From NCBI GenBank assembly GCA_036517115.1, contig DATDYB010000023.1, forward strand, positions 2,839 through 66,838: a stretch of DNA of 64,000 nt. The letters are read 5' to 3'. The translations under genes and the position numbers were made by a program. The stretch is from Minisyncoccota bacterium. Its GTDB lineage: Bacteria > Patescibacteriota > Minisyncoccia > Phycocordibacterales > PALSA-1337. Numbering within the stretch: position 1 is the first letter of the stretch; each line of letters opens with the position of its first letter. The notes beneath the pieces are model-generated. The model was not told where the DNA came from. It did not search any database and saw only the letters and a list, made by a program, of their open reading frames with translations. Shown here in pieces: positions 34,701 to 59,494 of this stretch.

Positions 34701-34806
34701 AGGACAGGGTTGTAAGAAATATGATGGAACGGGTGGTAGAGAGGATAAGACGTTAAGTCTCCCAATCCAAGTAACCAACGTCAATCCAACCTTTAAAGAA
34801 ATTTGA
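22774..34806 (+). CDS. giant secreted modular surface protein (4010 aa): TSP1-like, InlB-B-repeat-like, CARDB-like, FN3-like, Ig-like and PKD-like modules
   Basis: A single uninterrupted ORF. The signal peptide is ...RLCVYIVAVLSLFSFFFASNAVEA/YVP (alternative start ATG at 22807). It has a strongly repetitive module structure. Confidence 0.85.
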   Translation: MIYHRETITGSMGKKVRIERLCVYIVAVLSLFSFFFASNAVEAYVPGDTITHGTSHSYNNSTYSIYGSYYVGVAIHKNGSVCDQQYGNVYGSNANPPGPASISASCSQVAGPVGTTYTFKNFLLFNGSWSSTGETTYTVVAPTCTTFTYSGWGACQSDNTQTRTVTGSSPAGCTGGSPVTSQSCTFSAPACNYTYSNWGACQPNGTQTRTVNSTSPSGCAGTPATSQSCTYVAAVASAGLSLATPSSMPVPYNSAATLAVSSQNASNCNLSGGGQTWSNVTGNVGAGNVGVGNLTTDTAFSVNCTPNANTTGTPSNSLTVTVAAQVINYTISSAAGTGGTRSCTGCGTVSSGSQVSVTASPNTNYQFSSWSWSGTNNPCSSAGSTCTWNAAQSGTLTANFTAVPSFGTPSFSSVCNNQVTPNDCSTPIIDGSTVTYSGSVTNSGGAAGTWNGTVEVRDGNSGTVYTNWISGVSATVAANTTATLSGTHSNDATFGAGPWQFRFCQSGGSCSPWSGNYYFTKGYSISTTASPSAGGSIACSVGGTTVPCSNTFQSGTEVALTASTAANYQFSNWSGDCSGSSCLLTMNGNRSVTANFSSFNYRIDPPAAQTITQGKTIYVYVPTTLTGGNTEGVTLTLSNLQNGVSYTVDPVGALNPSVTRVFAITAAGNATVETRTVTITGSPLGRTTTFSLSVLAPTVSATLTARNAAGTAVTAAQTGETLNFTTSVLGTAGGTATYSGHTCGSGANLFNVSDGSFSCTYTSASNKTASITVTKQGVSATATKVISVTAPPNTLIIQSVVIDGAVITPTTGASMEMYDGTYNGIYPTEKTFTSTTGTITNTIQAPSKLNGNSFLSWSGCDSTRSRQRCDVTVANGATKTINAQYVTASYYRPNFTVSGVVVNGDKYKGTSTYVDYTINDHNVTIVGTITNSGSTEAPDQAAYVSFEYSTNGGASYTAMGAAYPAIKEQGGSTIPASFPRGAQQRVYAVLDVPPGAYTLRICVDSANSIPETNDSDNCSGGTAIVVSTPSAPPTVQSCFASFVNTNTAESNRDVRTSGNVGISGNCSTDYFQGMTVTGTAYASDLGAGVPVLDLYGWFGWRDFGTDPTNGGNGVWRDTGPVSTSAQYSVREANGACQNSSGWPSGDGIGFGPINVSAGYSNSFTYASYLGCLQNDPWQRTHVNFGTYGVPWGIYNYGVTNTFSGTYYCYVHLNSVYDVPSDTFKTPVLMRGDPKSFNLSTRAESCYSIPRGALDDDYYQESCGNSKYTDSVTFSCPGYTATPVQSTSNPLPLPNTPILKRHTLNVKSTFGTESSQGVFITQVGSAYALKTDGTLTSSVVVPMEGGNFGGTTDYSKTTERNFRVTLKAPFTHPSRGGSFIAWSGCDSLATSGDAPAGVSNNQCTIDFKYSNSGGISRTITANYFVAVPAQPIISVGPGSCGANVNISWSAAAGATTYKLHRSTNGLGGPFNQLPIGIPTTVTSVYPDSKLNATTPLSPNTEYWYQLEAVNTGGSSFSPITSGLSSKNCFDFGLTNGGNKTTVAGTNPVDNTLTASLTPEAVGATTQVVNLTMGSLPAGVTHVFLKGGVAVTSITPNDTITVRLNTTLGTTLPNTYAITITGTSPNPKIPGQNLTRQTTYNLIVTNPSNMQLSVTKSGTGTGTVKSSEATPKINCGSTCSALYTYSDQVTLIPTPDAGSAFKQWTGACSWTGSCIVNMNGNKAVDAEFTKQIASVDLKAETSDGPIIVDYDFNPKLTWSSTFVNANSCNITIDRQSNNFPKNGQPASMTAPGISTEALRQDVTFTVTCTKNTGAGGGTGTTVTDSVVVKVKVRTGDVTPVTRANSCGVIDVTYQSAGNATTYTLHRNPDASGLNQWGRIAGGGTEATGVAFGALPAVHTGLTAGTLYQYQLQAFNKVSDASSPIRSATASANCFDYTLSNSGNVGVGVTGAASASVTKTLVTAPTQAVTLAVSSIKKPDNSIVTGSGSSLSTSGLTIAIRDNNPSNPTSTSNIDVTTNNATLGTYVVTVVGSPLGKSTSFNVTVSIGQPTVTLNTTTAACGANINLSYGGGSGANSFTLYRQIDSNTSPYPQRATAPTLAGLPTIDKASDSLIAGRTYWYQLKASNGSFDAYSPRVSAVASVPCPTIDLKINDKDSDTVAAGSNAALSWQSFNAPTGSTCLASSVPISTFKGARVLTSSSPESVVVDVNTTYKIDCLAPGDYPFSDTAVVTAPVTVTCSALPTSGTAGVTEITWTAVPKGGTGAYTYSWSGTDSLTGTAISVKKTYGATSAGSKTASVSVNGLAAANCSTPVNIIAPVATADIKADASDGPITVNYGATPTISWSSEETATCSITASPGVTGFPKSGTSSAGVTSGALTADTTFNILCTPANGATNNPTNSVVVKVRPQAPDLTALPAACGGNINLTYTESNNTTGYKLHRNPYSGNVGTWGQIEGGNTGISIATLRNNRAIDVNLALGASYQYQLEAVNTNGSANSAIRSTNASEKCFDYSLSNGGNISVTAGQSVTNQVTRTLAPGVPVSASQDVTLSVGSLPNGMNAPDVTNPSFTANPFKPTNTSTLTLNTTLGKTCLPPLVSCTYLVTVTGVSAGITNKTTTFNLTVNNPSYLLTLNRSGNGSVSSSPVGVTCNTGCATTNASYLYNTSVVLTATPDSGWVVDTTNWTGCDSVTSNQGGQTFCTVKVTAAKTVAVLFTQVSANVNLKASASDGPITLAYGSGANLTWTSNHIVDNTCGITAIPSATGFPKSSLPLSHSGTSYTTGNLTVDTTFRITCTKITGAGGTDTDTVLVKVGPEPVSFNAAKGSCGSTIDLTSYSGGAGATGNAAYTLYRQLGDNPPYPFVESKAALTGGGGLRPVDSVGLTSGSTYFYQVMSTKVHLDTTSSYSYSAKKSAVASEKCFDYSLSNNGNVTIAVGGSSATAVTKTLVAGATAPVTLSVTSITAPGGTVTTGSGVTLAGSGLTVTVANNNPSNPATNPATNPSTVNVTSTTNASVGNYTVVVTGAPLGKTTSFAVTVNASAPTISFTPTPFACGGNINLFYGGGNGAARFSLFRKIDSNTSPYDHVETVTSRSALRTVDAGLIPGRTYYYQVRAWNGTNTTNEAYSVIPTSAVASEKCFDYSLSNGGNVSVTAGQSVTNTVTRTLASGVPVGASQDVTLSAVLPGTMNAPTPTFTLNPSKPTSTSNITLSTTLGTTCPPPTASCTYLITVNGSPLSKSTTFNLTVNNPSYALTITTSGTGEGSVTTSGITPAISCNRTNGTTTSGTCTGTYLHNTLVTLSASPDEGSTFDGWTGACNNTATSCTVTMSQAKYVDAKFNQQNTNISLTATTPVAYGSASSLAWSTSNMQNNKCDLDATYNGTSISGYPRKNLATSATNYSSGALTQNPVVFALTCTRVKGTAGPNTASATVGVLPAVMTPAPVSGTCGGTIALTYSGGTIATSYKLYRGTADQSPYTQPANPPYTHIRNTAPGAPADGSFTTLPATDAGLTPNTVYYYQVEAINTAGSSWSARPRSATASDNCFNYSLGTTGNVTLAVGSGGSTSITKTLIAGATAPVTLSVTSITAPGGTVTSGTTNTLTGSGMTVTISTTGNNNPGSPTNPASNPSTATITSTTAAQVGIYTIVVGGAPLGKTTSFTVDVGVAQPVVDAVTTTGANACGGKITLSYTGGEGATLYQLYRRINDDGTPYQLIQSAASLSALRTTDTELEYEKRYYYQVLASNGTKESYSARPKSALSTGECPPIVNLEIEQADGSYSGNTTSVVHGQSRMLRWTTTNASTCVAATIPNVPSGSVWGTNISILLPTGNHTTGPITGVDDDSQPPVREKVFRLTCQNSGGLATEVYDSVTVTITNIPTPDFSIVASPLTGVMNMYGPKGISSEFIITVEGQNNFTRDVVLDLELRTPSDQKENNVSFTLAPGDERLVFSEYSTGVGIKVNASNGLAGGKYNLIVTPLSDCNAQGQGCKKYDGTGGREDKTLSLPIQVTNVNPTFKEI
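27060..28900 (+). repeat. intragenic super-module unit 1 (about 1.85 kb; boundaries approximate)
   Basis: The order is FN3-like (CGANVNISW), CFDF module (Cys codon 27352), InlB-B-like, Ig-like, FN3-like, CFDY module (Cys codon 28564). Confidence 0.6.
29990..31875 (+). repeat. intragenic super-module unit 2
   Basis: Same module order, with Cys codons at 30289 and 31516. DNA similarity to unit 3 is visible by eye. Confidence 0.6.
31880..33745 (+). repeat. intragenic super-module unit 3
   Basis: Same module order, with Cys codons at 32170 and 33382. Confidence 0.6.
34780..34803 (+). other. C-terminal tail VNPTFKEI-stop (shared tail motif, copy 3)
   Basis: The last 8 codons of the 4010-aa protein. 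Confidence 0.7.
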
Positions 34807-34960
34807 TTTTCGTTCCAACCGAAAATCATGTCGAAAGATTTTTTCAGCAACGCTGAAAAAATTTTCGACTATTTTTGCCCACCGTAAAGCGCCGCTAAAA
34901 ACATGAACTTCGTTCAGTTCTCTAGCGACCAGCAAAAAAGCCCTAATCAAGGGCTTTTTT
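34803..34960 (+). repeat. about 158-nt intergenic unit, copy A (paralog of 59338-59494): conserved 5-prime hairpins plus terminal intrinsic terminator
   Basis: ttgattttcgttccaaccgaaaatcatgtcgaaagatttt... is near-identical to the start of copy B. It ends with gccct-aatca-agggc followed by tttttt (34940-34960). Confidence 0.6.
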
Positions 34961-34988
34961 GACAGCCAGCAACCTTTTGTTGTGTACT

Positions 34989-35017
34989 TGCAATTTAGAG
35001 CGTTTAGGTATATAATT
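34989..35017 (+). promoter_or_regulatory. promoter TTGCAA-17 nt-TATAAT
   Basis: TTGCAA at 34989-34994 and TATAAT at 35012-35017, upstream of the 35100 gene. Confidence 0.6.
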
Positions 35018-35099
35018 GTATATAGAAGATGTTTGAAATTGTTTAGAAAAAACGGCAATTTCTCGCTTCGGTAAACTAAAATTCAACAAAGGAGACGGT

Positions 35100-36014
35100 G
35101 TGAAGAAATTCATCTTGTCAGTTGTATTCGTACTCGCGCTTTTCGGAGTCCGAATGGTCTCCGCAAGCGAAATTTTTCTGCCTATCGGTAGTAAAGAAAC
35201 AGTTGATACTTATATCCGCAACCAGGTGTCCGAACTGTGGATCAATCTTGTGGTGGAGAATCCGTGGAAAATCATAGACATGGAAGGTGGTCCACTCGAT
35301 TTCACCGAGTCTGATTATGAGGACATCTGTGAAAGTTGGCTTCCTGTAATGCTTGAACGTTCCGGACAGGAGATTAGTAAATACCCAGGTGCGACGGTCA
35401 GCGTTAAAATTCTGGGAATCCTTCGAGATGGTAGACCATGGTCAGTATTGGTTCACTATCGTAAAATTGGAATCATTAAGGCAGATGGTTCGCTTGAGGT
35501 TTCAGGCGACGCACTCAAGGTGCATTTTGAACCCTATCCAAGTGTCCATGTTAAGTTGCCGGGAATTTCCTCTGCATCCATAACATATACAGATGGTGAG
35601 GTACAAAAGACATTGATACCCGTCGCGCAGGATATCTATCTTGCCGGAGCATTCAAAATCGATGAAGCGTACGACATGCTCATACTCCCATACGATCTTT
35701 CTATCGGCACATATCCTGGAACTCTCACCCTGTCTTTCAAGGATGGAAGTGAGCAGGTCTTCGATTTACAGCCGAACCGTATGGTCATCACTAGACTCGA
35801 ACGAGGGATGGAGCAGATCACTCTTACTCTTGAAGGTTCCGGACTCTTCGCTGTCGACGTTTCAACCGACTTGAAGACGTGGACGGAAGCGGGCGTCGGA
35901 GCGTTTGATCCCGAAGGTCCCACGATCTTTCAGGTGGCCTGCACTAAGGGAAATAGTGCATTCTATCGGCTGCGTGGTAGAAGTCCAGAAGTAGTCGGCT
36001 CCAGTAGTCGTTAA
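35100..36014 (+). CDS. secreted hypothetical protein (304 aa)
   Basis: GTG start with AAAGGAGA 6 nt upstream. The signal peptide is MKKFILSVVFVLALFGVRMVSA/SE. No domain recognised. Confidence 0.6.
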   Translation: MKKFILSVVFVLALFGVRMVSASEIFLPIGSKETVDTYIRNQVSELWINLVVENPWKIIDMEGGPLDFTESDYEDICESWLPVMLERSGQEISKYPGATVSVKILGILRDGRPWSVLVHYRKIGIIKADGSLEVSGDALKVHFEPYPSVHVKLPGISSASITYTDGEVQKTLIPVAQDIYLAGAFKIDEAYDMLILPYDLSIGTYPGTLTLSFKDGSEQVFDLQPNRMVITRLERGMEQITLTLEGSGLFAVDVSTDLKTWTEAGVGAFDPEGPTIFQVACTKGNSAFYRLRGRSPEVVGSSSR

Positions 36015-36034
36015 TCTAAACAATGTCATTCATG

Positions 36035-36064
36035 CCCGCCTTGTTAACTCAAGGCGGGTTTTTT
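36035..36064 (+). terminator. intrinsic terminator
   Basis: cccgcctt-gttaactc-aaggcggg followed by tttttt. Confidence 0.7.
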
Positions 36065-36097
36065 CTTATCTGTTGGGGAAATTCCTCTCGCATGTTC

Positions 36098-36106
36098 TGG
36101 TATACT
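36098..36106 (+). promoter_or_regulatory. extended -10 box TGgTATACT, 7 nt before the pilB ATG
   Basis: ttcTGgTATACTtagcactATG, with no Shine-Dalgarno sequence. Confidence 0.5.
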
Positions 36107-36113
36107 TAGCACT

Positions 36114-37859
36114 ATGTACATTGAAGAGAAACAGCTTCGAAACTTTATTCTTGATTCAGGGCTAGTATCTCGAGCCGACTACGAGAAGGCGTCTGAAGAT
36201 GTCAAAGGTAAAAAAGATGGGGTAGGCGAGATGCTGGTATCTGAAGGAAAAATAACCGAGGATAACCTACGGCGCATGCAGGCATATGTGCTCGGCATCC
36301 CTTTTGTCGATCTCAAGGGTCAGAAAATCCCTTTTGACACGCTCTCTCTTATTCCTGAGCCCATTGCCCGAACTCACAACGTAGTCGCATTCAAAAAAAC
36401 AGACGATGCGCTTGAAGTGGCCATGCTTGATACGGACGACTTGAACGCCATCGACTTTGTTCAAAAGAAGGTACGTTTGAGAATCTTGCCTCGATTGACC
36501 GATACTGAATCAGTCAGAAGCGCCCTGCTGCAATATCAGAAAAGTCTTAAGGCGGAATTTGGCGACATCATCCAAAAAGAAGTGGAGGCGCTTAAGGCCG
36601 TGACTGACGGAAAAGGGGATGCTTCGGTGAGCGATCTTAAGAAAATCGCGGAAGATATTCCGGTGGTTCGTGTTGTCGATACACTGTTGAAGCATGCCAT
36701 ACTCCAAAACGCTTCGGATATTCACATTGAACCGATGGAAGCGGAACTTCTGGTACGGTATCGCATTGACGGACTTTTGCATGACGCTATGATTTTGCCA
36801 AAAAGTGCTGAGCCCTCGATCACCGCACGTATCAAAGTGCTCTCTAACTTAAAGCTAGATGAAAAGCGTCTTCCGCAGGACGGCCGGTTTAAAGTAGAAA
36901 TGGAAAAAGAGAAAGTTTCCTTCCGCGTGTCCATTCTCCCGACTTATTTCGGTGAGAAGACGGTGATGAGACTCCTTCGCGAAAACGCGGGCGGCTTTAC
37001 GCTTGAGGGTCTCGGTTTTCACGGCATGGGACTTGAGCGCATCCATAAAGCAAGTACGCTTTCCACGGGAATGATCTTGACCACTGGCCCGACCGGCTCG
37101 GGAAAAACGACGACGCTCTACACCATGCTCGATATTTTAAATACACCCGACGTGAACATCTCGACAGTCGAAGACCCTGTGGAGTACCAAATGCCGCGGG
37201 TCAACCAGTCACAGGTCAAGCCGGAAATAGGGTTCACTTTTTCAAGCGGTCTTCGAACACTGGTACGACAGGATCCGGATATTATCATGGTCGGTGAAAT
37301 CCGTGACAACGAAACCGCCTCACTTGCTATCAACGCTGCGCTTACCGGTCACCTCGTGCTCTCGACACTCCACACCAACTCCGCTGCTGGTGCGATACCA
37401 CGATTGCTTGATATGAAAGTTGAACCGTTTCTTCTTGTTTCCACCATTGATATCGTCATCGCTCAGCGTCTGGTGCGCAAATTGTCGGATAGTAAAGAGA
37501 AGTATTTTTTAAGCAAGAGTGAGTTTGAACAGCTACGTACGTCAGTTGATGTAGATAAAGTGCTCAATACACTCAAAGAAGAACATATTGTGGAAAAAAA
37601 TGTTGCATGGGATAAGATTCCTTTCTACAAAGCTAAAGAAGGAACGGAAGAAGGGTATAAGGGTAGGTTCGGTATCCACGAGGTACTCAAAGTAACATCA
37701 ACTATCAAAGATCTCGTAATGAAGGGGGCGACGGCTGACGAAATTGAAGCTCAGGCACGAAAAGAGGGAATGTTGACGATGCTCGAAGACGGGATCTTTA
37801 AGGCGGCTCAAGGGCTCACTACTATTGAGGAAGTACTCCGTGTTGCGACCACAGAATAA
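36114..37859 (+). CDS. pilB: type IV pilus assembly ATPase (GspE/PilB family)
   Basis: 581 aa with an N-terminal T2SSE_N-like domain, Walker A GPTGSGKTTTLY, VEDPVEY, IIMVGEIRD and LSTLHTN. Confidence 0.9.
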   Translation: MYIEEKQLRNFILDSGLVSRADYEKASEDVKGKKDGVGEMLVSEGKITEDNLRRMQAYVLGIPFVDLKGQKIPFDTLSLIPEPIARTHNVVAFKKTDDALEVAMLDTDDLNAIDFVQKKVRLRILPRLTDTESVRSALLQYQKSLKAEFGDIIQKEVEALKAVTDGKGDASVSDLKKIAEDIPVVRVVDTLLKHAILQNASDIHIEPMEAELLVRYRIDGLLHDAMILPKSAEPSITARIKVLSNLKLDEKRLPQDGRFKVEMEKEKVSFRVSILPTYFGEKTVMRLLRENAGGFTLEGLGFHGMGLERIHKASTLSTGMILTTGPTGSGKTTTLYTMLDILNTPDVNISTVEDPVEYQMPRVNQSQVKPEIGFTFSSGLRTLVRQDPDIIMVGEIRDNETASLAINAALTGHLVLSTLHTNSAAGAIPRLLDMKVEPFLLVSTIDIVIAQRLVRKLSDSKEKYFLSKSEFEQLRTSVDVDKVLNTLKEEHIVEKNVAWDKIPFYKAKEGTEEGYKGRFGIHEVLKVTSTIKDLVMKGATADEIEAQARKEGMLTMLEDGIFKAAQGLTTIEEVLRVATTE

Positions 37860-37861
37860 TA

Positions 37862-39073
37862 ATGAAATTTAAATTCAAAGCAAAAAATGCGGCCGGAGAG
37901 GTGATAAGCGGAGTACGAGAGGCCGCGGATAAATTTTCCTTGTATAAGGAAATGAAGAGTATCGGCAACGTCATTATCTCGGTAGTACCTCTTGGGGCGC
38001 ATGAAACAGGAGAGCCAAGGTTTGCTTCATTGTTGGGGTTTGTGGGCACCCACGAGAAAATCATTTTCGCCCGAAACCTAGGTTCGATGATGGAGGCCGG
38101 ACTCTCTGTTTCTCGTGCACTCTCGGTGATGGAACGGCAAACCAACAATGCAGCGTTCAAGAAAGTGCTGCGAAGCCTTATCGCGGAAATCAACGCCGGT
38201 ACGACACTCTCGAATGCCCTCCGAAAATTCCCTAAAGTATTTTCCTCTCTTTTTGTTTCCATGGTGGGCGCTGGGGAGGAGAGCGGCTCTATGGCAGGCT
38301 CACTCAAAAAAGTGGGTGAGCAGATGGAGTCATCATATCTGTTGCAGAAAAAAGTGAGGGGAGCGCTCATGTATCCAGCGGTCGTGCTTCTCGCGATGGT
38401 TGTTATCGCCGTCCTCATGCTTATGTATATCGTCCCGACCCTGACCGCGACTTTTAACGAGCTCCATGTAGAGCTGCCCCTTTCCACACAGTTTATTATT
38501 GCGGTCAGTGACATAGTCCGTCTACACTTTTTGAGCGCCCTCTTATCTCTCGTTGTCCTTATCGTTCTATTTTCTTTAGCTATACGCTCGCCGAAAGGTA
38601 AGCACGTTCTTGATTTCTGTATACTACATGTACCACTTTTTTCTACGTTGGTTAAGCAGGTAAACTCTGCACGAACCGCGCGTACATTTTCTTCACTCCT
38701 GTCCGCGGGCGTCCCCATGCTTGAGGCGGCGCGGATCACTGGGTCGGTGGTTCAAAATTCATACTACAAGGCTGTACTTAAAGAGGCAGAAACGGTCATC
38801 ACTAAGGGCGAATCACTCTCGTCACTTTTTTCACAGAAGACGAATCTCTATCCGATTTTCTTAGGAGAAATGGTAAATGTTGGTGAAGAGACCGGCAAAC
38901 TCTCATCTATGCTCGTGAATGTTGCCGACTATTACGAGAATGAAGTGGCACAAAAGACTAAAGATCTATCCACGTTGATTGAGCCGTTGCTGATGATCGT
39001 GATTGGCGTGGCTGTAGGTTTTTTCGCACTCGCCATGATCACGCCGACCTATTCGGTACTCGATAGTCTGTAA
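37862..39073 (+). CDS. pilC: type IV pilus platform protein (GspF/PilC family)
   Basis: 403 aa with two T2SSF repeats (...LSxALxxFPKVFSSLFVSMVGAGEESG... and ...LSSLFSQKTNLYPIFLGEMVNVGEETGKL...) and 3 TM segments. Confidence 0.9.
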   Translation: MKFKFKAKNAAGEVISGVREAADKFSLYKEMKSIGNVIISVVPLGAHETGEPRFASLLGFVGTHEKIIFARNLGSMMEAGLSVSRALSVMERQTNNAAFKKVLRSLIAEINAGTTLSNALRKFPKVFSSLFVSMVGAGEESGSMAGSLKKVGEQMESSYLLQKKVRGALMYPAVVLLAMVVIAVLMLMYIVPTLTATFNELHVELPLSTQFIIAVSDIVRLHFLSALLSLVVLIVLFSLAIRSPKGKHVLDFCILHVPLFSTLVKQVNSARTARTFSSLLSAGVPMLEAARITGSVVQNSYYKAVLKEAETVITKGESLSSLFSQKTNLYPIFLGEMVNVGEETGKLSSMLVNVADYYENEVAQKTKDLSTLIEPLLMIVIGVAVGFFALAMITPTYSVLDSL

Positions 39074-39074
39074 T

Positions 39075-39554
39075 ATGAAAGATTCAAGATTCAAGATTCA
39101 AGACGATGGCTTTACGCTTATTGAAATGCTGTTGGTGTTGAGCATCCTCATTTTTCTTGCGGGGATCAGTGTGCCCACGTTCTCGAAATTCATGACAACC
39201 AATAACTTAGAAAAAAGTACGGCAAAAGTAAGAGGACTCTTAGAAGAAGCTCGTTCATTAACGCTTGCCTCAAAATACGATACGCAGTACGGTGTTCACT
39301 TTGAAAGTGCCAAGGCGGTGTTGTTTCAAGGTGCTTCATATTCTTCCACTAGTGCCACCAACATTTCCCTCACCTTGCCCTCGAGTGTGCGGATCGGTAC
39401 CACCACGCTTTCCGGAGGGGGTAATGACGTTGTGTTCTCTCGGCAAGCAGGGGGTGTCAGCGCCTACGGCACTACGACACTTTTTCTCCTCGCTAATCCT
39501 GCCCGTATCTCGTCGATCGTGATTTATGGTACAGGACTGACGGAAATTAAATAA
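39075..39554 (+). CDS. prepilin-type N-terminal cleavage/methylation domain protein (GspH/FimT-like minor pilin)
   Basis: MKDSRFKIQDDG/FTLIEMLLVLSILIFLAGI, with G at -1 and E at +5. Confidence 0.8.
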   Translation: MKDSRFKIQDDGFTLIEMLLVLSILIFLAGISVPTFSKFMTTNNLEKSTAKVRGLLEEARSLTLASKYDTQYGVHFESAKAVLFQGASYSSTSATNISLTLPSSVRIGTTTLSGGGNDVVFSRQAGGVSAYGTTTLFLLANPARISSIVIYGTGLTEIK

Positions 39555-39555
39555 C

Positions 39556-40068
39556 ATGAAAAAATCTCGGTTAAAATTTTTACATTCTAAATTCCGTATC
39601 TCATATTCTTCGGGCTTTAGTATGGTCGAGATGGTGGTGGGGCTCGGCATTCTTGCAGTTGCTTTCAGTGCTCTCTTCGGCACCTATCGAGCGTATCTTA
39701 AGGCCGCACTTAAGACGACAGATACCTTAAAAGCAGCCTATCTGCTTGAGGAAGGGTTGGAATCGGTTCGACTCCTTCGGGATACCGGTTTTACTGCAAA
39801 TATCGCTCCACTTGCCTCGGGCACTTCCTATTACCTTGCTTGGAGTGGCGGCACGTGGAAATCAACTACCAGCGCGCAAACTATCGACGGGTTTAGCCGC
39901 TCCTTCAGGATCGCCTCGATATATCGTGATGCGAGTCAAGACATCGCTTCTTCCGGTACGCTCGATAACAATACGAAGAAGGTGGACATGATGGTGGCGT
40001 GGACAGGAAGGGGAGCCACCACTACCGAGACGATCTCTACCTACCTTTCTAATATTTTAAACAATTGA
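39556..40068 (+). CDS. prepilin-like protein
   Basis: ...ISYSSG/FSMVEMVVGLGILAVAF, with E at +5. Confidence 0.7.
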   Translation: MKKSRLKFLHSKFRISYSSGFSMVEMVVGLGILAVAFSALFGTYRAYLKAALKTTDTLKAAYLLEEGLESVRLLRDTGFTANIAPLASGTSYYLAWSGGTWKSTTSAQTIDGFSRSFRIASIYRDASQDIASSGTLDNNTKKVDMMVAWTGRGATTTETISTYLSNILNN

Positions 40069-40562: not shown

Positions 40563-40563
40563 C

Positions 40564-41868: not shown

Positions 41869-41869
41869 T

Positions 41870-46973: not shown

Positions 46974-47009
46974 GCTGAATTGAAAGAAGCGAAGCGACTA
47001 TGCAATTCG

Positions 47010-47072
47010 CACCCCGTGGAGTAAATCATTTCATGATTTCATTTTGCGGAGCAAAATGTACTCCACAGGGTG
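47010..47072 (+). promoter_or_regulatory. 63-nt three-way-junction RNA structure in the tpiA-pgk leader (function unknown)
   Basis: P1 is CACCCCGTGGAGTA / TACTCCACAGGGTG (14 bp, 1 mismatch). P2 is aatcat-ttc-atgatt. P3 is cattttgc-gga-gcaaaatg. A further hairpin gattttc...gaaaatc lies at 47075-47104, just before the ATG. Confidence 0.45.
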
Positions 47073-47108
47073 ATGATTTTCTAATCGTAGAGCTCAAGAA
47101 AATCAATC

Positions 47109-51818: not shown

Positions 51819-51830
51819 TATTCTATTTCC

Positions 51831-52556: not shown

Positions 52557-52565
52557 TCTAATTAA

Positions 52566-52588
52566 TAAAAAAAGACGCACCAGCGTCT
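52566..52588 (-). terminator. intrinsic terminator overlapping the stop of 52587-52889
   Basis: The minus strand reads agacgc-tggt-gcgtct followed by ttttttt. Confidence 0.55.
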
Positions 52589-52889: not shown

Positions 52890-52945
52890 AAGAATGTATT
52901 TTCTCCCATCACGGTACCAGAGGTGCTCTTCCAGAGCAAGGGGTT

Positions 52946-52954
52946 TGTTACAAT
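52946..52954 (+). promoter_or_regulatory. extended -10 box TGtTACAAT, 7 nt before the comEC ATG
   Basis: ttTGtTACAATagagcgtATG. This favours the start at 52962 rather than the GTG at 52923. Confidence 0.5.
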
Positions 52955-52961
52955 AGAGCGT

Positions 52962-54470: not shown

Positions 54471-55050
54471 AATTCTTTTCGATCACTTCCCAATTCAGAT
54501 TCGCAAAGAAGTCTTCAATGTAGCTTTTCTTTCCGGAAGGTTGATAGTCAAAGACGAATGAGTGTTCCCACATATCGAGGCCAAGAATGAGTTGGCATCC
54601 GTTTAGTTGTCCCAGATGTTGTTCGTCTACCCACGCATGAACAAGTTTTTTTACAATAGGATCGTAGTAGAGCATTGCCCAGCCGATGCCACGGGTGAGA
54701 GCAATCGACTTGAACATGGCGAGCCAGCCGTCGAATAAACCGAACTGTTCCTCGATTGCTTTTTTAAGCACACTCCCAGCGGGGAGGGGTCTTGCTCCGT
54801 TTTCTAAACTTTTAAAATAATATTCGTGATTCCGCATGCCGTTCCATTCGAAGCTGAAGCGGCGCTGTAGTTCGCCAAGTGCATACGCATTTTTTTCAGC
54901 ATCCAGTTTCATTTCGGTAATCTTTTCGAAAATTAAATTAACATGCTTCACATATCCGGAATAAAGTTTCAGATGTTCCTCGACACTTTTTTTAGAAATA
55001 CCTTTCAGTTCTGGGATATTAAATTTTTGCTCGTCGTATTTGAAGTTCAT
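54451..55050 (-). CDS. Fe/Mn-family superoxide dismutase
   Basis: The likely start is MNFKYDEQKF (ATG at 55050). EEHLKLYSGYV, WNGMRNHEYYF and LGLDMWEHSFVFDY motifs are present. Its 3-prime end overlaps the comEC 3-prime end by 20 bp (convergent). Confidence 0.85.
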   Translation of the reverse strand: MNFKYDEQKFNIPELKGISKKSVEEHLKLYSGYVKHVNLIFEKITEMKLDAEKNAYALGELQRRFSFEWNGMRNHEYYFKSLENGARPLPAGSVLKKAIEEQFGLFDGWLAMFKSIALTRGIGWAMLYYDPIVKKLVHAWVDEQHLGQLNGCQLILGLDMWEHSFVFDYQPSGKKSYIEDFFANLNWEVIEKNFIQASR

Positions 55051-55101
55051 AGATTCACGATTAATGTATATTTTTAGTATAACATTTTCTGAAGTTTTTA
55101 A

Positions 55102-55110
55102 TGCTACAAT
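55102..55110 (+). promoter_or_regulatory. extended -10 box TGcTACAAT, 6 nt before the ATG at 55117
   Basis: aaTGcTACAATtttctcATG. Confidence 0.5.
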
Positions 55111-55116
55111 TTTCTC

Positions 55117-55971
55117 ATGCAAAAAAGGGAGCGGATCAAATACGGAGTACTGGTAGGGCTTCTATTGTTTACATCTTTTGTGTGGTACGTGATCGCGCTG
55201 GAGTCGAGACAAGGGAAGCTTACGGTGACGTTTTTAGACATCGGACAGGGTGATGCGATTTTCATCGATACTCCGAGCGGTAATCAGGTGTTGGTGGACG
55301 GAGGTGCGAATAAAAAAGTGCTTTCTGAGCTTGGTAGAGTAATGCCGTTTTTCGACCGCTCTATCGATATGATAATCGCCACTCATCCCGACAGGGATCA
55401 CATCGGCGGTCTGCCGTGGGTAATGGAGAAATACGCGGTGACGAGCGTTGTGGAACCGGGGGTCAAAGGAGAATCCGCCGAATCCGTCCATTTCAATACC
55501 CTGGTTAGTGAGCGGGGTGTTAAAAAAGAGCTGGCCCGAAGAGGAGCGGTCTACGATCTGGGCGAAGGAGTAAAACTTACCATTCTCTTCCCCGACAGGG
55601 ATGTTTCGGGGCTTGAAACAAATGACGCCTCGATTGTCGCGAGGCTCACCTACGGAAACACGTCATACCTACTCACAGGGGACTCACCGCAGAAAATTGA
55701 AAACTATTTGGTGTCGCTTGATGGAGTCGGACTTAAAAGCGATGTTCTGAAAGCTGGGCATCATGGTTCCCGCACTTCAACAAGCGAAGCATTCGTGGCG
55801 GCAGTGCTGCCGTCTATTGCGGTAATTTCCGCAGGTAAAAATAATTCATACGGCCATCCTCATAAGGAAGTGCTTGGCGTACTCGAAAAATTTAAAGTAA
55901 AGATTCTTCGCACCTATGACCGCTCGAGAATTAAAATAATCTCTGACGGGACTTCTTTGAAGATAAAATAA
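55117..55971 (+). CDS. membrane-anchored ComEC-type metallo-beta-lactamase-fold protein (separate polypeptide)
   Basis: The N-terminal TM segment is YGVLVGLLLFTSFVWYVIAL. It is followed by LTVTFLDIGQGDAIFIDTPSGNQVLVDGG, IATHPDRDHIGGL, LLTGDS and AGHHGS, as in the ComEC C-terminal domain. Confidence 0.8.
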   Translation: MQKRERIKYGVLVGLLLFTSFVWYVIALESRQGKLTVTFLDIGQGDAIFIDTPSGNQVLVDGGANKKVLSELGRVMPFFDRSIDMIIATHPDRDHIGGLPWVMEKYAVTSVVEPGVKGESAESVHFNTLVSERGVKKELARRGAVYDLGEGVKLTILFPDRDVSGLETNDASIVARLTYGNTSYLLTGDSPQKIENYLVSLDGVGLKSDVLKAGHHGSRTSTSEAFVAAVLPSIAVISAGKNNSYGHPHKEVLGVLEKFKVKILRTYDRSRIKIISDGTSLKIK

Positions 55972-56006
55972 AACCCTCTTTCGAGGGATTTATAAATAAG
56001 CGCTTT

Positions 56007-56121
56007 AGAAAAAACGGCCCAGATGCGAGACGCGAGCGAGTAGTGCGACCAAGCTGTAGTTTGATACTACTGCGTGGGAGCACACGGAGCTTGCAACGAA
56101 GCAGGTGGGATTGTTTTTTCT
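56007..56121. repeat. 115-nt long imperfect palindrome bounded by AGAAAAAAC / GTTTTTTCT (probable long-stem bidirectional terminator)
   Basis: The ends are perfectly complementary. The apex hairpin is gtagt-ttgat-actac at 56056-56070. The arms pair with several internal loops. The right end overlaps the rpmB stop codon. Confidence 0.5.
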
Positions 56122-56362
56122 AAAGGAGACCGGCTTTTTTGAGAGTAGCGTAAGCCCCGTTCTTATTGATCGTTTTGATTGCTCGTGTTGAGAGAGTAAG
56201 AATGATGTGCTTTTTAAGTTCAGGAACGTAAATTTTCTTCTTCTTGAGATTAACCTGTTTTCGGACTTTTCCGGTAGGATTATACTGGGTAGCACGAGTA
56301 CGGTTGCTGTAACCGCCTCCTACAATGCTCCCTCTTTTTGTTACTGCACAGATTTTAGCCAT
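56120..56362 (-). CDS. rpmB: 50S ribosomal protein L28
   Basis: 80 aa, MAKICAVTKRGSIVGGGYSNRTRATQYNPTGKVRKQVNL... The TGaTAGCAT box ends 7 nt before the ATG. Confidence 0.85.
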   Translation of the reverse strand: MAKICAVTKRGSIVGGGYSNRTRATQYNPTGKVRKQVNLKKKKIYVPELKKHIILTLSTRAIKTINKNGAYATLKKAGLL

Positions 56363-56402
56363 GAAGGGTATGCTATCATAAGGGTAAATTTAATCAAGTT
56401 TT

Positions 56403-57020
56403 ATGGAAGTAATGTTTATTTTTTCAATCGCTATTCTTATCATGTCGGTCGTCGCCCATGAGGTTGCCCATGCGTGGAGCGCAGAGCTCTTGGGTGACCC
56501 CACGCCGCGACTCGCCGGCCGCTTAACGCTCAACCCCCTTCGACATTTGGACTTGTTCGGTTCCCTTATCGTGCCGCTCATCACTTTTTTTGCCGGCGGC
56601 ATAATTTTTGGCTGGGCCAAGCCTGTGGTCTGGAATCCCTATAACATTCGAAACGCCAGGTGGGGGGAGGGGCTCATAGCGTTCGCCGGTCCTCTCACGA
56701 ATCTTCTTATTGCATTGTTCTTCTCCCTTATCATCCGATTTGTCGCGCCTCTGTATCCGCTACCGCTCTCTTTTATCGATATCTCGCAATACATTATTCT
56801 CATCAATATCACCCTGGCGATATTCAACCTGGTACCAGTGCCCCCACTTGATGGTTCAAAAATTCTTTTTATGTTGATTCCGCCGCACTATCAGCATGTA
56901 CGAGAAATGATTGAACGCTATTCAATGGTGCTCATCTTAATTTTCATTTTCGTGCTCTGGAGGTTCATTACTCCCGTGATCCCTTGGTTGTATAAAATAT
57001 TTACAGGACTAAGTTTTTAA
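56403..57020 (+). CDS. site-2 protease family (peptidase M50) membrane protein
   Basis: HEVAHAW (HExxH), LNPLRHLD and NLVPVPPLDGSKIL motifs. Confidence 0.8.
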   Translation: MEVMFIFSIAILIMSVVAHEVAHAWSAELLGDPTPRLAGRLTLNPLRHLDLFGSLIVPLITFFAGGIIFGWAKPVVWNPYNIRNARWGEGLIAFAGPLTNLLIALFFSLIIRFVAPLYPLPLSFIDISQYIILINITLAIFNLVPVPPLDGSKILFMLIPPHYQHVREMIERYSMVLILIFIFVLWRFITPVIPWLYKIFTGLSF

Positions 57021-58121
57021 CTTTTCCGCCTCGCACACTTTGTATGATGTGTTTTCTGTGACAATGCGAATTTTTCCGACAAAGGTGTTCATGAGTTTGT
57101 CGTAGCCCAAGAATGTGTTAAATACTAATCGCAATTTTCCTGCTGTAGCTAAATGATGGGGAGCTTCTTTGATAAGTCGTTCGCTTGCTTCAGACGATGT
57201 TTTGATGCCTTGATGGAAGGGGGGATTGGAAATGATTAAATCATATTTTTCATCAATATCTGAAAACACATCAGAGGGAATGATTCGAACGTTGGAAACC
57301 TTGTTCGCTTCCATGGTGAGACGTGCTGATTCGAGTGAAAGCGCGTTCACATCGGATAGATGAATCACACTCTCCGGTGATATTTTCTTAAGATACATAC
57401 CAATAACCCCAGAACCACAAGCGATATCAAGTAGTGTGATTTTTGTATGAAGGTCTATGTGAGGTATTTTGTCAGAGATGGACGTGTCTTGCGTATCCTG
57501 CAAGGTGAGCGATTCAAGCAATAATTTTGTTCCTGCGTCGAGCTTACCCAGGCTGAACACACCGGGTAGATTGCAGACCGTGAAGGAGACTTCGCCAATC
57601 ATCGCTTCGTATCGACTTATAAATTCCTCAGGTTGTTTGCTGATCTCTGTTTTTTTCTCTGCCTCAAACCACACACAGTGCCGTGCCGCGTCGTTCGCAG
57701 TAATTGGACCAATCAATCTTTCGATATCTTTCTTGGCGCTCCTGATACCCCCATCGTTCTCTCCGACGACGACAACTTTTCCACCGTGTGCCGTATTTAA
57801 TGATGCAAGCGTCAGCACATATTCAATAAGCGGTTTGCTTTTAGGTAGGTAGACGATCGTGGTGTCATGAAGGGACGATGAAGTATGCCAATGGTTGAAA
57901 ACGGTAGTTACATTTTTGTCTTCAGCAGATGCGGTCTGTACTCTTTTGTAATCAGCGTAATCGAAATAGAAGAGGGTGAGGGTGCTTTCAGGGAGTTTTT
58001 CTTTAAGTGCCACACCAACTTCCTCATCGGGACAGTTTAAAACAAGGAGGTTGCTCCCTGTGATTTTTTCGATATTTCTGATCACCAGCTGTGATGGTTT
58101 GCTTAGTTCACGTGATTCCAT
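57009..58121 (-). CDS. class I SAM-dependent rRNA methyltransferase (RsmC/RlmG-like)
   Basis: 370 aa in a two-lobed arrangement. The C-terminal lobe has LLDIACGSGVIG and IISNPPFHQG. Confidence 0.75.
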   Translation of the reverse strand: MESRELSKPSQLVIRNIEKITGSNLLVLNCPDEEVGVALKEKLPESTLTLFYFDYADYKRVQTASAEDKNVTTVFNHWHTSSSLHDTTIVYLPKSKPLIEYVLTLASLNTAHGGKVVVVGENDGGIRSAKKDIERLIGPITANDAARHCVWFEAEKKTEISKQPEEFISRYEAMIGEVSFTVCNLPGVFSLGKLDAGTKLLLESLTLQDTQDTSISDKIPHIDLHTKITLLDIACGSGVIGMYLKKISPESVIHLSDVNALSLESARLTMEANKVSNVRIIPSDVFSDIDEKYDLIISNPPFHQGIKTSSEASERLIKEAPHHLATAGKLRLVFNTFLGYDKLMNTFVGKIRIVTENTSYKVCEAEKLKT

Positions 58122-58284
58122 ATGGACTAGCCTAGCATAATTTGCGTTTTTTTAAAGTTTGTATTACTGTACATTCATAGCTTTTTGACTAAAGCTTTTA
58201 TTAATCACAAGGGTAAGTATGAGTAATCTCAAGGCCAACTCGGCCGGAAGATGAAGAACTTCAAACTTCCCGTTATTAAAAAGA

Positions 58285-58698
58285 ATGCCCACCATCAATC
58301 AGTTAGTGCGAAGAAATAGAAAGAAATTGTACCGCAAGCCAAAAGCGGTGGCGTTAATGCGTGGTTTTAATACCATCAAGAACCGTCCTCGTTTTTACCC
58401 ATCTCCTTTCAAGCGAGGAGTATGTATCAAGGTGACGACCAAAACGCCGAAGAAGCCGAACTCAGCTATCCGAAAGATCGCCCGCGTTCGTTTGACGAAT
58501 GGTATGGAGGTTACCGCCTACGTGCCCGGCATCGGACACAACCTACAGGAGCACTCAGTAGTACTTCTTCGAGGTGGCCGTGTGAAGGACGTCGGTATTC
58601 GATACACCATCGTTCGAGGCGTGCTCGACGCCGGTGGGGTAGAGAAACGTATGAAAGGTCGCAGCCAATACGGAGCTAAGAGGCCTAAAAAGGCTTAG
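58285..58698 (+). CDS. rpsL: 30S ribosomal protein S12
   Basis: MPTINQLVR..., [18 protein letters not shown] and [19 protein letters not shown]. Confidence 0.95.
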
Positions 58699-58792
58699 AT
58701 ACCAATATACTAATTAGTGCCAATATACGAATGAATACGAATCGGGATTTGCAGCCATTAGTAGATTTGTATCATTTGTAGATTGGTATATT
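58699..58792 (+). repeat. hairpin element copy 2 (family shared with 8331-8432) filling the rpsL-rpsG spacer
   Basis: The ends ataccaat / attggtat pair. The inner stem tacgaatgaatacgaat / atttgtatcatttgta has G-U pairs valid only on the plus strand. The 3-prime 45 nt are about 80 percent identical to the tig-proximal arm of copy 1. The terminal TGgTATATT lies 7 nt before the rpsG ATG. Confidence 0.6.
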
Positions 58793-58799
58793 AAATTCT

Positions 58800-59270
58800 A
58801 TGCGAAGAAAAATAAAAGCACGACGACCCCTGAATCCCGACCTGGTGTACAGCTCGGTTAAAGTTTCAAAATTTATCAACTACATCATGGAACGTGGCAA
58901 GAAAAACACTGCCCGAGAGATCGTCTATGATTGTTTTGAAGCTATCAAGGAAAAAGCAAAAGTGGAAAATCCGATGGAAGTATTTGATACTGCGCTCAAG
59001 AACACTGCGCCGAATATGGAAGTACGTTCACGACGAGTGGGAGGTGCCAACTACCAGGTTCCTCGAGAAGTTCGACCTGAACGAAAACAGGCGCTTTCAA
59101 TGAAGTGGATTATTGACGCAGCTCGAAACAAAAAGGGCGCTGAAATGCACAAAAAGCTAGCGGATGAGATCATTCTTGCAGCAAAGGGAGAAGGTGAGGC
59201 GGTGAAGAAGCGTGAGAACACGCACAAGATGGCTGAGGCCAATAAAGCCTTTGCCCATTTCGCCTGGTAG
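58800..59270 (+). CDS. rpsG: 30S ribosomal protein S7
   Basis: 156 aa with KFINYIMERGKKNTA, RRVGGANYQVP and AHFAW at the end. Confidence 0.95.
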   Translation: MRRKIKARRPLNPDLVYSSVKVSKFINYIMERGKKNTAREIVYDCFEAIKEKAKVENPMEVFDTALKNTAPNMEVRSRRVGGANYQVPREVRPERKQALSMKWIIDAARNKKGAEMHKKLADEIILAAKGEGEAVKKRENTHKMAEANKAFAHFAW

Positions 59271-59337
59271 TTTCGCGCCAAGCGTCGAAACTACAGCTGC
59301 GAAATGGAGCCCGAGCCTTCCGAGGCGAGGTGCCCGC

Positions 59338-59494
59338 TTGATTTTCGTTCCTACCGAAAATCATGTCGCAAGATTTCCCATAACGTAGTTATAAAAAATT
59401 TGCGACTGCTTGGTAGAAGACACGGAACAGACGTGGAACGAAGCCAGCACGGAACGAAAGGAACAAAACGAAAAGCGGGACAGCCCGCTTTTTT
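59338..59494 (+). repeat. about 157-nt intergenic unit, copy B (paralog of 34803-34960)
   Basis: ttgattttcgttcctaccgaaaatcatgtcgcaagattt... It ends with agcggg-acag-cccgct followed by tttttt (59474-59494). Confidence 0.6.

Follow-up and report, generated by a model that had tools for sequence, protein, structure and literature searches.

A two-hairpin intergenic element downstream of two unrelated genes in a groundwater Candidatus Paceibacterota bacterium

An uncultured groundwater bacterium of the Candidatus Paceibacterota (CPR) carries, behind two unrelated genes, an element with a two-hairpin core of ~70 nt, positioned in both cases 3′ of the stop codon and 5′ of a terminator. The copies represent a genuine paralogous family with conserved secondary structure, as the earlier note on this DNA had proposed: compensatory changes keep the pairing, and the element is therefore real but narrowly distributed. 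Our preferred interpretation, to which we assign a probability of roughly 0.4, is that of a lineage-restricted structured module, transcribed within the 3′ UTR and acting in cis on mRNA 3′ ends, in loose analogy to REP or BOX elements.

Architecture of the two copies

In the window (the whole 64-kb stretch of DNA that was analysed), the core is common to copy A (34804–34870) and copy B (59339–59407), these and all following coordinates referring to features on the plus strand. It comprises hairpin H1 (9 bp, 7-nt loop), a linker of 1–3 nt and hairpin H2 (19–21 bp). A 39-nt block occurs exactly twice (34803–34841 and 59338–59376) with two differences, where none is expected by chance.

H1 has the general form TGATTTTCG-N7-CGAAAATCA and is present in both copies as originally described, at 34804–34828 with loop TTCCAAC in copy A and at 59339–59363 with loop TTCCTAC in copy B; a third difference in the conserved blocks (A/T) falls in this loop. 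The starting points given for the two copies also stand. The TGA stop of the 4010-aa gene (34804–34806) supplies the first three bases of the 5′ arm of H1 in copy A, and copy B starts 68 nt 3′ of the rpsG stop (59270).

The earlier note had recognised that pairing in the second hairpin is kept despite differing sequence, but had drawn it too short, as H2 extends over 34830–34869 and 59365–59406. Copy A combines a 7-bp base (GTCGAAA/TTTCGAC), one bulged purine, an 11-bp A/U-rich stem and the tip CAGC-aac-GCTG, and copy B has the base GTCGCAA/TTGCGAC, a bulged purine, ATTT/AAAT, a CCC/AAA internal mismatch and the tip ATAAC-gta-GTTAT. A C-G pair in the base of copy B thus corresponds to an A-T pair in copy A. 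The motif aaaaaattt(t/g)cgact is indeed conserved, yet it is not a separate block: it is the 3′ arm of H2 (AAAAAATTTKCGACT), pairing with GTCG(A/C)AAGATTT, and the stem differences A/C and T/G amount to one compensatory base pair.

Beyond the core, the 3′ domain of copy A (34870–34932) includes a hairpin, TGAAC-ttc-GTTCA, that resembles a degenerate H1, and the variable 3′ region of copy B (59407–59470) is rich in GGAAC(G)AA repeats. Each unit ends, as had been stated, in an intrinsic terminator with a G+C hairpin followed by a T-run, at 34933–34963 in copy A (CAAAAAAGCCCT / AGGGCTTTTTTG) and at 59471–59497 in copy B (AAAAGCGGGACAGCCCGCTTTTTTCGT), the latter directly 5′ of the ribosome-binding site and ATG (59523) of a 93-aa ORF. 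The near-equal unit lengths (158 versus 157 nt) proved coincidental, since one full unit in a relative measures ~119 nt and another unit lacks its own terminator.

Two further hairpins in the window resemble H1. One, at the rpsG stop codon (59268–59293, TAGTTTCG...CGAAACTA), has an H1-like stem; in relatives, the last base of the stop and the base opposite it have changed together (TAG/CTA versus TAA/TTA), and the hairpin is likely related to the H1-H2 family. The other, GATTTTC-N16-GAAAATC at 47073–47105, ends 3 nt before the tpiA ATG; the gattttc/gaaaatc stem reported there (47075–47104) is real, but as a family member this hairpin was not detected on the plus strand (E = 5.9) and weakly on the minus strand (E = 0.12). 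Hairpins with the GATTTTC/GAAAATC stem number three in the window against 0.03 expected.

Conservation of pairing and sequence

Every copy folds as H1 plus H2, with z-scores of −4.2 to −7.4 for the window units. Across four copies, eight pairs were changed on both sides with 95.4% of cells paired, against 0–1 in slid controls; across five copies, in an alignment that was also fitted to the model, nine pairs were changed on both sides with 94.9% of cells paired, a result reached by 0 of 500 shuffles. These counts are small because the set consists of five distinct but related cores, drawn from two or three genomes that are very close to one another. The five different H2 tips are nevertheless all paired (CAGC/GCTG, ATAAC/GTTAT, GTGAC/GTCAC, TGCC/GGCA and ATGAC/GTCAT). 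H2 overall has a conserved 7-bp base, one bulged purine and a freely changing tip.

The sequences of H1 and the H2 base are far more conserved than neighbouring neutral sites. Between the window and the related contig L036, rpsG is 85.6% identical (59% at third codon positions), whereas no difference occurs across the 32 nt spanning H1, for which our own arithmetic gives 0.85^32, or ~0.005. Two H1 variants, each self-complementary (GATTTTCG/CGAAAATC and GATTTTTC/GAAAAATC), were found on contigs L036 and L034 from one metagenome sample, which probably belong to one genome.

An alternative pairing of the H1 3′ arm with a downstream GATTTT had also been put forward, with mutually exclusive folds as its consequence. 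It finds no support in covariation, and 292 of 500 shuffles do as well; moreover, L036 has a T-to-G change at this site for which a second change within H2 compensates, whereas the alternative pair is lost. The proposed switch was thus tested and is unsupported.

Distribution among relatives

A search of related genomes recovered homologues in the closest relatives at the same two loci as in the window, with a tandem extra unit in one of them, each copy bearing its own, still paired, H2 tip. The module has given rise to a copy at a second locus and has also undergone tandem duplication. The copies seen occupy two loci per genome (region), which correspond between the window and the relative, and all of them share the orientation of the flanking genes. 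In the relatives too, the copies are preceded by a stop codon and followed by a G+C hairpin with a T-run. In more distant relatives the sites are empty. In L035, the homologous gene end (…NPSFKEF*) is followed directly after the stop codon by a terminator homologous to that of copy A, with no element, and in L027, L030 and L038 rpsG abuts fusA with no element between them. The exact H1 pattern had no match in 185,579 species-representative genomes, and no Rfam family matches the element.

Copy A and unit 1 of the relative L034 share 83% identity in the 3′ domain, against 54% in the spacer between terminator and start and 60% in the adjacent gene. In copy B, the 3′ region beyond CGACTGCYTGGTAG is unrelated to its L036 counterpart, and 30 bases of the terminator (AAGCGGGACAGCCCGCTTTTTTCGTGCTAG) are identical in a distant Taylorbacteria genome without the H1-H2 core.

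Candidate functions and comparison with known systems

The promoter scan revealed no conserved −35/−10 pair within or before the element, a putative TTGATT hexamer being ACGATT in L034 unit 2. Because the element has no conserved promoter-like site and is followed by an intrinsic terminator, it must lie in the 3′ UTR of the upstream gene; its transcription, strand and processing we infer.

This layout could also suit a family of trans-acting, 3′ UTR-derived sRNAs, a possible but doubtful alternative in which H1 and the H2 base would serve as a protein-binding scaffold and the H2 tip with the ~60-nt pre-terminator segment as the targeting part. The order of constant 5′ module, variable segment and terminator is consistent with this proposal, as are the conservation of the constant part beyond structural need, the replacement of the copy B 3′ region in a relative whose S7 is 98% identical, and the seed-region-like conservation (83%) of the copy A 3′ domain. 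CpxQ, SroC and DapZ of enterobacteria similarly lie between a stop codon and a shared mRNA terminator and join a conserved module to a more variable part. However, the element has no identified targets, Hfq/ProQ context or Rfam match; no conserved internal promoter or candidate partner protein nearby was found, and its variable regions have neither complementarity of at least 11 nt elsewhere in the 64-kb window nor a match in viral contigs.

Comparably doubtful is the proposal of a selfish or recombination-prone DNA repeat (REP/BIME, BOX or MITE-like), whose hairpins would be kept by palindrome mutation, through template switching or gene conversion, and not by RNA function. Template switching in a DNA palindrome can yield concerted changes in both arms without selection on RNA. 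Patchy presence at syntenic sites and the tandem duplication are in keeping with such a repeat, as is the rpsG-fusA junction, an insertion hotspot with different cargo in different genomes. Metagenome contigs L034, L036, L037, L040 and L041 begin or end inside or beside the element, as expected for repeats or polymorphic sites. In the distal half of H2, two contigs with a single difference in 672 nt elsewhere disagree at 11 of 33 columns, a sharp pile-up more suggestive of recombination or a mutational hotspot than of fine-tuned function. Against a DNA repeat, the boundaries show no terminal inverted repeats or target-site duplication, the window yielded no transposase, RAYT, integrase or reverse transcriptase, and both the mere two loci seen per genome region and the single orientation relative to genes are contrary to it. 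H1 is furthermore identical across lineages ~41% diverged at third codon positions, which argues for purifying selection.

Known repeats share some of these features. REP/BIME sequences of enterobacteria and pseudomonads, including REPINs, are short imperfect palindromes in transcribed intergenic DNA just 3′ of stop codons; their RNA hairpins can stabilise the message that precedes them, they are found alone or in tandem clusters, and a given syntenic site may have or lack them. The element differs in having two different hairpins with sequence conserved in H1 and the H2 base, no conserved 5′ GTAG, no REP-like palindromic arms, no RAYT gene seen, a fixed orientation, and two loci seen as against hundreds of REPs. 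BOX (Streptococcus pneumoniae), ERIC/IRU and Correia elements are likewise modular intergenic repeats with variable sub-unit number, and their predicted RNA structure is stable; they are transcribed together with adjacent genes and can affect mRNA processing; Correia hairpins are RNase III substrates. Unlike these, the element lacks sequence similarity to them, terminal inverted repeats and TA duplication, appears far lower in copy number, and resides in a CPR bacterium, a group for which the literature searched held no description of such a repeat.

An integron attC is also an imperfect hairpin whose base is conserved and whose tip varies strongly, with one nucleotide extrahelical, and copy B lies at a place that has received insertions of small accessory genes. 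The base of H2 is nonetheless GTCGAAA…TTTCGAC rather than RYYYAAC…GTTRRRY, with the order reversed; there is one site per locus instead of one per cassette, always with H1, and no integron integrase in the window. IS200/IS605 ends and PATEs carry subterminal hairpins recognised in single-stranded form, and copies A and B begin with TTGAT, the ISDra2 target pentanucleotide, but here this lies inside the H1 stem and reads CACGAT in L034 unit 2, the hairpins on the two sides do not resemble each other, and the window has no TnpA/TnpB.

An attenuator- or riboswitch-like cis-regulatory leader for the downstream gene, namely the 93-aa ORF (copy B) or a 304-aa secreted protein (copy A), appears improbable. 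In copy B, the Shine-Dalgarno sequence and ATG come within 26 nt after the terminator, 30 nt of which are conserved at 100% in a distant genome with the same ORF, and two GGAACGAA(A) motifs able to pair with the 5′ arm and loop of H1 would permit an alternative fold. These GGAAC motifs are missing from the L036 copy, however, and the Taylorbacteria genome has terminator and ORF without the core. A strong sigma-70-like promoter (TTGCAA-17-TATAAT, 34988–35016) separates the copy A terminator from the 304-aa gene and is kept in L034 (TTGCAA-17-TATACT), and the two downstream genes are mutually unrelated, with no known-family match.

Still less credible is a minus-strand DNA site with a promoter-like [T/G]CGACA-17-GAAAAT, the H1 palindrome as spacer operator and antisense transcripts that would enter the upstream gene from its 3′ end. 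The promoter scan placed TCGACA-17-GAAAAT on the minus strand within copy A, at positions conserved in copy B, and the minus-strand folds of copy B and L036 are more stable. The match is nevertheless 9/12 in copy A and 8/12, below the scan threshold, in copy B, and antisense RNAs to rpsG and a surface-protein gene have no obvious role. The two self-complementary H1 variants, probably in one genome, point to a hairpin rather than to a target for one dimeric DNA-binding protein.

Relics of a duplicated gene start (ATG TCG AAA GAT ...), which the earlier note had named as a refuting alternative, are suggested by an ATG 3′ of H1 in all copies and by the tpiA hairpin with the same stem just before a real ATG, but are effectively refuted, as the internal-ATG ORFs run for 19, 6, 6 and 28 codons and diverge into unrelated sequence beyond codon 5, the two conserved blocks differ in reading frame in copies A and B, and the conserved parts are covarying arms of one hairpin.

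Under the favoured reading of a cis-acting 3′ UTR module, H1 would block 3′-exonucleases where the upstream mRNA ends, or would be bound there. Two observations speak against this reading: conserved loop and linker sequence is not needed for a generic exonuclease barrier, and the non-canonical positions do not favour the plus strand, on which copy B contains three C·A pairs and L036 one A·C (G·U on the minus strand), and L034 one U·G, with folding energies mixed between strands. The long bulged helix of H2 may be the point at which a double-strand-specific RNase or another factor enters or processes the RNA. Conservation at the level of sequence implies recognition by a specific, putative factor. 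Together with the terminator, H1 and H2 would fix where the upstream mRNA ends, stabilise that 3′ end and insulate the downstream gene.

Anatomy of the two copies

Exactly two occurrences of the 39-nt block TTGATTTTCGTTCC[A/T]ACCGAAAATCATGTCG[A/C]AAGATTT are present in the window (34803 and 59338), against a chance expectation of none, which bears out an earlier note's claim that two intergenic units share a near-identical 5′ part. The core of both copies (copy A, 34804-34870, after the 4010-aa giant gene; copy B, 59339-59407, after rpsG) consists of a hairpin H1 (TGATTTTCG, a 7-nt loop and CGAAAATCA), a linker of a single T, and a long hairpin H2 whose 5′ arm opens with GTCG(A/C)AAG and whose 3′ arm closes with TT(T/G)CGAC. 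Because the 3′ arm of H2 ends in this way, the block AAAAAATTTKCGACT, which the note had listed as conserved in its own right, is conserved but is not a separate block; it is that arm. Only three differences fall within the conserved blocks: A/C and T/G form the two sides of a single base pair, and the third lies in the H1 loop.

As the note had stated, copy A starts at the stop codon of the giant gene, the TGA of the 4010-aa ORF forming bases 1-3 of H1, and copy B lies 68 nt beyond the rpsG stop. Each unit was said to close in a canonical intrinsic terminator, and a G+C-rich stem-loop followed by a T-run is indeed present at both 3′ ends (copy A, 34933-34963, with 12-nt perfect arms and then TTTTTT; copy B, 59471-59497, with a G+C hairpin and T-run). 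H1 and H2 are not canonical terminators; TATTTTT nonetheless follows H2 of copy A. RNAfold recovered H1 and H2 in both copies, and folding of the whole units gave z = -7.4 (A) and -4.2 (B) relative to shuffles. The variable region of copy B (59420-59465, + strand) is made of GGAAC(G)AA-like repeats, none of which occurs in the copy of relative L036. Two 9-mers within it, GGAACGAAA, are complementary to the 5′ arm and loop of H1 (TTTCGTTCC), and in the minimum-energy structure that RNAfold predicts for copy B the pairing of GGAACGAAA with the H1 5′ arm replaces H1.

S7 homologues indicate that the host belongs to Candidatus Paceibacterota (Patescibacteria/CPR), near Taylorbacteria, and contigs identical to the window come from groundwater metagenomes, Rifle among them. 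Copy A is flanked upstream by the gene of the giant surface-type protein and downstream by a strong promoter, TTGCAA-17-TATAAT (34988-35016), which serves the gene of a 304-aa secreted protein; type IV pilus genes come next. Copy B occupies a 1.48-kb rpsG-fusA stretch together with a 93-aa ORF and a uracil-DNA glycosylase (UDG) gene. The 93-aa ORF matched nothing in Pfam, NCBIfam or PADLOC, and its confident AlphaFold model (pLDDT 85.7) had no significant fold match in the PDB (best E = 0.7). None of the window's genes encodes a transposase, an integrase or a reverse transcriptase. The idea that copies A and B are direct repeats bounding a 24.5-kb island was rejected because the interval carries the syntenic core genes recJ, rnhA, comEC, sodA, rpmB, rpsL and rpsG.

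Several features of these neighbourhoods were recorded in passing. The rpsG frame stays open for 178 codons past its TAG stop (59271-59804, + strand), spanning element B with its terminator as well as the 93-aa ORF, and certain gene-calling programs predict a 166-aa ORF at 59304-59804; the open frame is probably due to chance (p roughly 0.02 for 84 non-coding codons, by our own estimate). Between the 93-aa ORF and the UDG gene, a 190-nt spacer (59805-59992, - strand) contains short minus-strand ORFs such as MERKKKVLPAKRFRIPKRTGKGMTLEEFKRKWKI, which could be remnants of a small gene. An RsmC-like methyltransferase gene (57009-58121, - strand) separates the M50 peptidase gene from rpsL; it is missing from contigs L027 and L030, and L028 carries ParD-like genes in that interval. 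In the strain variant L022 (1-1482), a gene with a T5orf172/MUG113 domain adjoins a shortened ComEC gene.

Maintained hairpins and conserved sequence

Compensatory substitutions keep the base pairs of the core, as is expected of a structured RNA; a DNA hairpin would yield the same signal. Among at most five core sequences, all closely related, both-sided changes affected 8 of 28 pairs in a MAFFT alignment of the four full cores (no one-sided change, 95.4% of cells paired) and 9 of 28 in a model-fitted alignment of five cores (one one-sided change, 94.9% paired). In each alignment slid controls gave 0-1, and none of 500 shuffles reached the observed score. These figures show that H1 and H2 are maintained, without distinguishing action as RNA from action as DNA. 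The covariation-like second hairpin of the note is upheld. The note's alternative fold, in which the 3′ arm of H1 pairs elsewhere, fell away, being no better than shuffles and broken exactly where H2 is compensated. A strand call from G·U versus A·C pairs was dropped, the signals being contradictory.

Comparison with L036, a close relative carrying the element, places this conservation against its background. The rpsG genes are 85.6% identical (59% at third codon positions) and the spacer between rpsL and rpsG can hardly be aligned, but a 32-nt stretch across H1 is fully identical, which by our own arithmetic has a probability of ~0.005 at 85% per-site identity. Identity of these 32 nt despite the divergence of rpsG points to purifying selection on both the sequence and the structure of the core. 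Unlike the core, the tip of H2 has undergone wholesale replacement, as has copy B's 3′ region.

The rpsG stop of the window lies within the 5′ arm of the hairpin TAGTTTCG…CGAAACTA (59268-59293); in L036 (817-846) the last base of the stop codon covaries with the base it pairs with (TAG/CTA, TAA/TTA). The counterpart in the Taylorbacteria contig L033 (5497-5518), TAATTTTCG-tctg-CGAAAATTA, is H1 with TAA/TTA instead of TGA/TCA. The rpsG stop-codon hairpin is conserved across the window, L036 and L033, with an H1-like stem. A hairpin starts at the stop codon of 5 of the 46 window genes, versus 2.2% of random positions, and two of these five are the element-bearing genes.

The hairpin that the note had seen upstream of tpiA, with a GATTTTC/GAAAATC stem, is present and ends 3 nt short of the tpiA ATG. 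It is the last part of a strongly structured leader (46975-47108, + strand; RNAfold z = -4.1) downstream of a TATAAT at ~46966, in which two hairpins and the 12-bp stem that closes around them, CCCCGTGGAGTA/TACTCCACAGGG, form a three-way junction. No Rfam family matched this leader (best Gut-1, 20 bits versus 50), which may regulate the tpiA-pgk operon in cis as an RNA element.

Distribution in relatives and comparison with known families

Homologues, which the note had made a test of its proposal, were found at the copy A site in L034 and at the copy B site in L036 and L037. Contig L034 comes from a Logan run that also contains an S7 98% identical to that of the window, and carries two tandem units upstream of a homologue of the 304-aa gene (52% amino acid identity). 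Unit 1, truncated at the start of the contig, is 83% identical to copy A from the H2 tip onward; beyond it the next spacer is 54% and the gene 60% identical to the window. In unit 2, H1 reads GATTTTTC/GAAAAATC, with two compensatory pairs relative to the window, and the same H2 base bears a new tip (GTGAC-aaa-GTCAC) and a shorter tail closing in its own terminator. L036, from the same run, has an H1 100% identical to the window's and the H2 base GTCGAAA/TTTCGAC, with a T-A pair changed to G-C, a new tip (TGCC-gaa-GGCA) and a 3′ region unrelated to that of copy B. A second locus has acquired a copy of the module, and a tandem duplication of it has also taken place.

The Rifle contig L037, from the same aquifer as the contig it was compared with, matches the window at all but 1 of 672 nt, after which 11 of 33 columns differ (672-705, against window 59379-59411). 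The latter differences lie in the distal and 3′ half of copy B's H2 and keep the hairpin, and a CC mismatched in window copy B pairs with GG; L037, the shorter contig, ends 5 nt past the variant stretch. The variant could represent an allele at a hypervariable position, a third paralogue, or a chimera created in assembly. Four C-to-A/G changes close to the start of contig L040 are possibly a contig-end error.

Empty sites were found at both loci. In L035, which carries a more distant homologue of the 304-aa gene, the giant-gene end (…NPSFKEF*) is followed directly by a homologous terminator with no element. L033 (S7 69% identical) has a 93-aa ORF (73% identical) right behind rpsG and 30 nt of terminator identical to the window's, with no H1-H2 core. 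As the ORF is 73% identical against 69% for S7, and 30 terminator nt are identical, the comparison suggests that the small 93-aa ORF cassette moved by horizontal transfer. The rpsG-fusA junction (window 59268-60751; L033 5497-6993; L028 10472-11463) is an insertion hotspot: among relatives with S7 85-89% identical, rpsG abuts fusA in L027, L030 and L038 and the gap holds DUF4190 and ORF6N genes in L028; elsewhere it holds the 93-aa ORF and UDG gene (window) or a 93-aa ORF and a MazE-like pair (L033).

No third copy was found in the window at up to 3 mismatches, by nhmmer, by blastn or with an unfiltered covariance model of H1 and H2 (69 positions). The homologue search with a covariance model proposed in the note was extended, with nhmmer and blastn, to all fetched relatives; it returned the known copies and a lone weak extra match, the H1-like rpsG stop hairpin of L033. 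The exact pattern GATTTTCG-N7-CGAAAATCATG had 17 matches among GTDB species-representative genomes, none homologous to the element: the L002 match is inside coding sequence, those in L003, L004 and L013 adjoin tRNA-Gln, and these three share with L009 and L011 a flanking sequence unrelated to the element. The JGI metagenome collection gave one match, by chance; the scan missed L021 and L022, from JGI samples of the same organism, and is thus of no use for counting copies there. Core and variable-region patterns had no match among viral contigs.

The sequence common to L003 (3760-3960), L004 (6797-6997), L013 (859-1059), L009 and L011 is a conserved stretch of ~90 nt, …GACCGCAG…CTGTTCAATCTGCTCACCTGCTCC plus a hairpin GATTTTCGG/CCGAAAATC, unrelated to H1-H2. 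Its hosts are Spirochaetia, FCPU426 and unclassified MAGs, it directly adjoins the 3′ end of the tRNA-Gln gene in three of the five loci, and it may be an attachment site or mobile-element end.

The element matches no Rfam family and lacks the defining features of MITE and attC as well as the GTAG head of REP. Rfam 15 gave no hit in the whole window at gathering thresholds, and permissive scans of both loci gave only matches below threshold, to the terminator or to generic hairpins, the best being rimP (25.6 bits versus 47) and SprD (18.4 versus 100). MITE-like terminal inverted repeats are absent, the start TTGATTTTCG not being inverted relative to the core end TTTTCGACT or the unit end, and filled window sites compared with empty L035 and L033 show no target-site duplication. 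The H2 base GTCGAAA…TTTCGAC matches the attC boxes RYYYAAC…GTTRRRY at 5 of 7 positions but in opposite order; attC sites form arrays, whereas each locus here has a single site, and the window encodes no integrase. Three further ideas were discarded: a DNA-uptake sequence (TTTTCG-type motifs are not over-represented in the window), a spacer or protospacer (the variable regions have neither viral matches nor significant complementarity in the window), and a coding or leader-peptide origin (the ORFs are not conserved).

Possible roles of the element

By analogy, the element most resembles REP/BOX-type transcribed intergenic hairpin repeats or 3′-UTR sRNAs, and appears to be a member of neither. 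Its fixed position between stop codon and terminator, fixed orientation, maintained hairpins and lack of a conserved promoter favour a structured module that belongs to the 3′-UTR transcript and acts in cis, a tentative reading to which we give a probability of about 0.4 and whose every functional step we infer. H1 would serve as a 3′-end barrier or binding site, H2, a bulged helix of 19-21 bp, as a processing or binding helix, and the terminator would close the unit.

A family of trans-acting sRNAs derived from 3′ UTRs, in which the scaffold stays constant and another region varies, is rather unlikely. The position after the stop codon and the terminator shared with the mRNA agree with it, and no conserved internal promoter for such a transcript was found in the element. 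Equally doubtful is a recombination-prone DNA palindrome of the REP/BOX kind. REP/BIME repeats occur in many dispersed copies per genome; the 64 kb of the window contain two copies, and a relative has three units, at these same loci. The element has no 5′ GTAG head, and no Y1/HUH transposase (RAYT) is among the window proteins.

The constant scaffold of H1 and H2 base, with a fast-replaced H2 tip and ~60-nt segment, would also suit a programmable or diversifying RNA system of CPR bacteria or a recombination site for accessory genes, both very unlikely. The element could then be a family of scaffolded guide-like RNAs that some protein reads, or the hairpin could be an insertion point for small genes (93-aa ORF, UDG, others) beside rpsG. 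If either were true, the strain-level burst of H2 changes would be the work of a dedicated mechanism and not chance.

A leader of the downstream gene, such as a riboswitch or attenuator, is slightly less probable still. Leader-like geometry exists in copy B only; in copy A and L034 the promoter of the downstream gene follows the terminator and so intervenes, the alternative pairing has no covariation support, and L033 keeps terminator and ORF without the core. A minus-strand promoter or operator is highly improbable, and a relic of a gene start is refuted by the reading frames and the covariation.

The observation is a clean and solid but narrow comparative one from a poorly explored host group, the element having been seen at two loci in one species-level clade. 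CPR/Patescibacteria have small genomes with scant space for non-coding DNA, and in the literature searched neither repeat elements nor structured RNAs specific to a lineage were described for them. A conserved, structured 3′-UTR module of ~70 nt behind the genes of a ribosomal protein and a giant surface protein would offer a handle on mRNA 3′-end biology in CPR, and the element may mark recombination hotspots such as the rpsG-fusA junction. Should its constant scaffold and variable segment reflect a family of RNAs acting in trans, the element would count as one of the earliest regulatory RNAs to be proposed in the CPR radiation.
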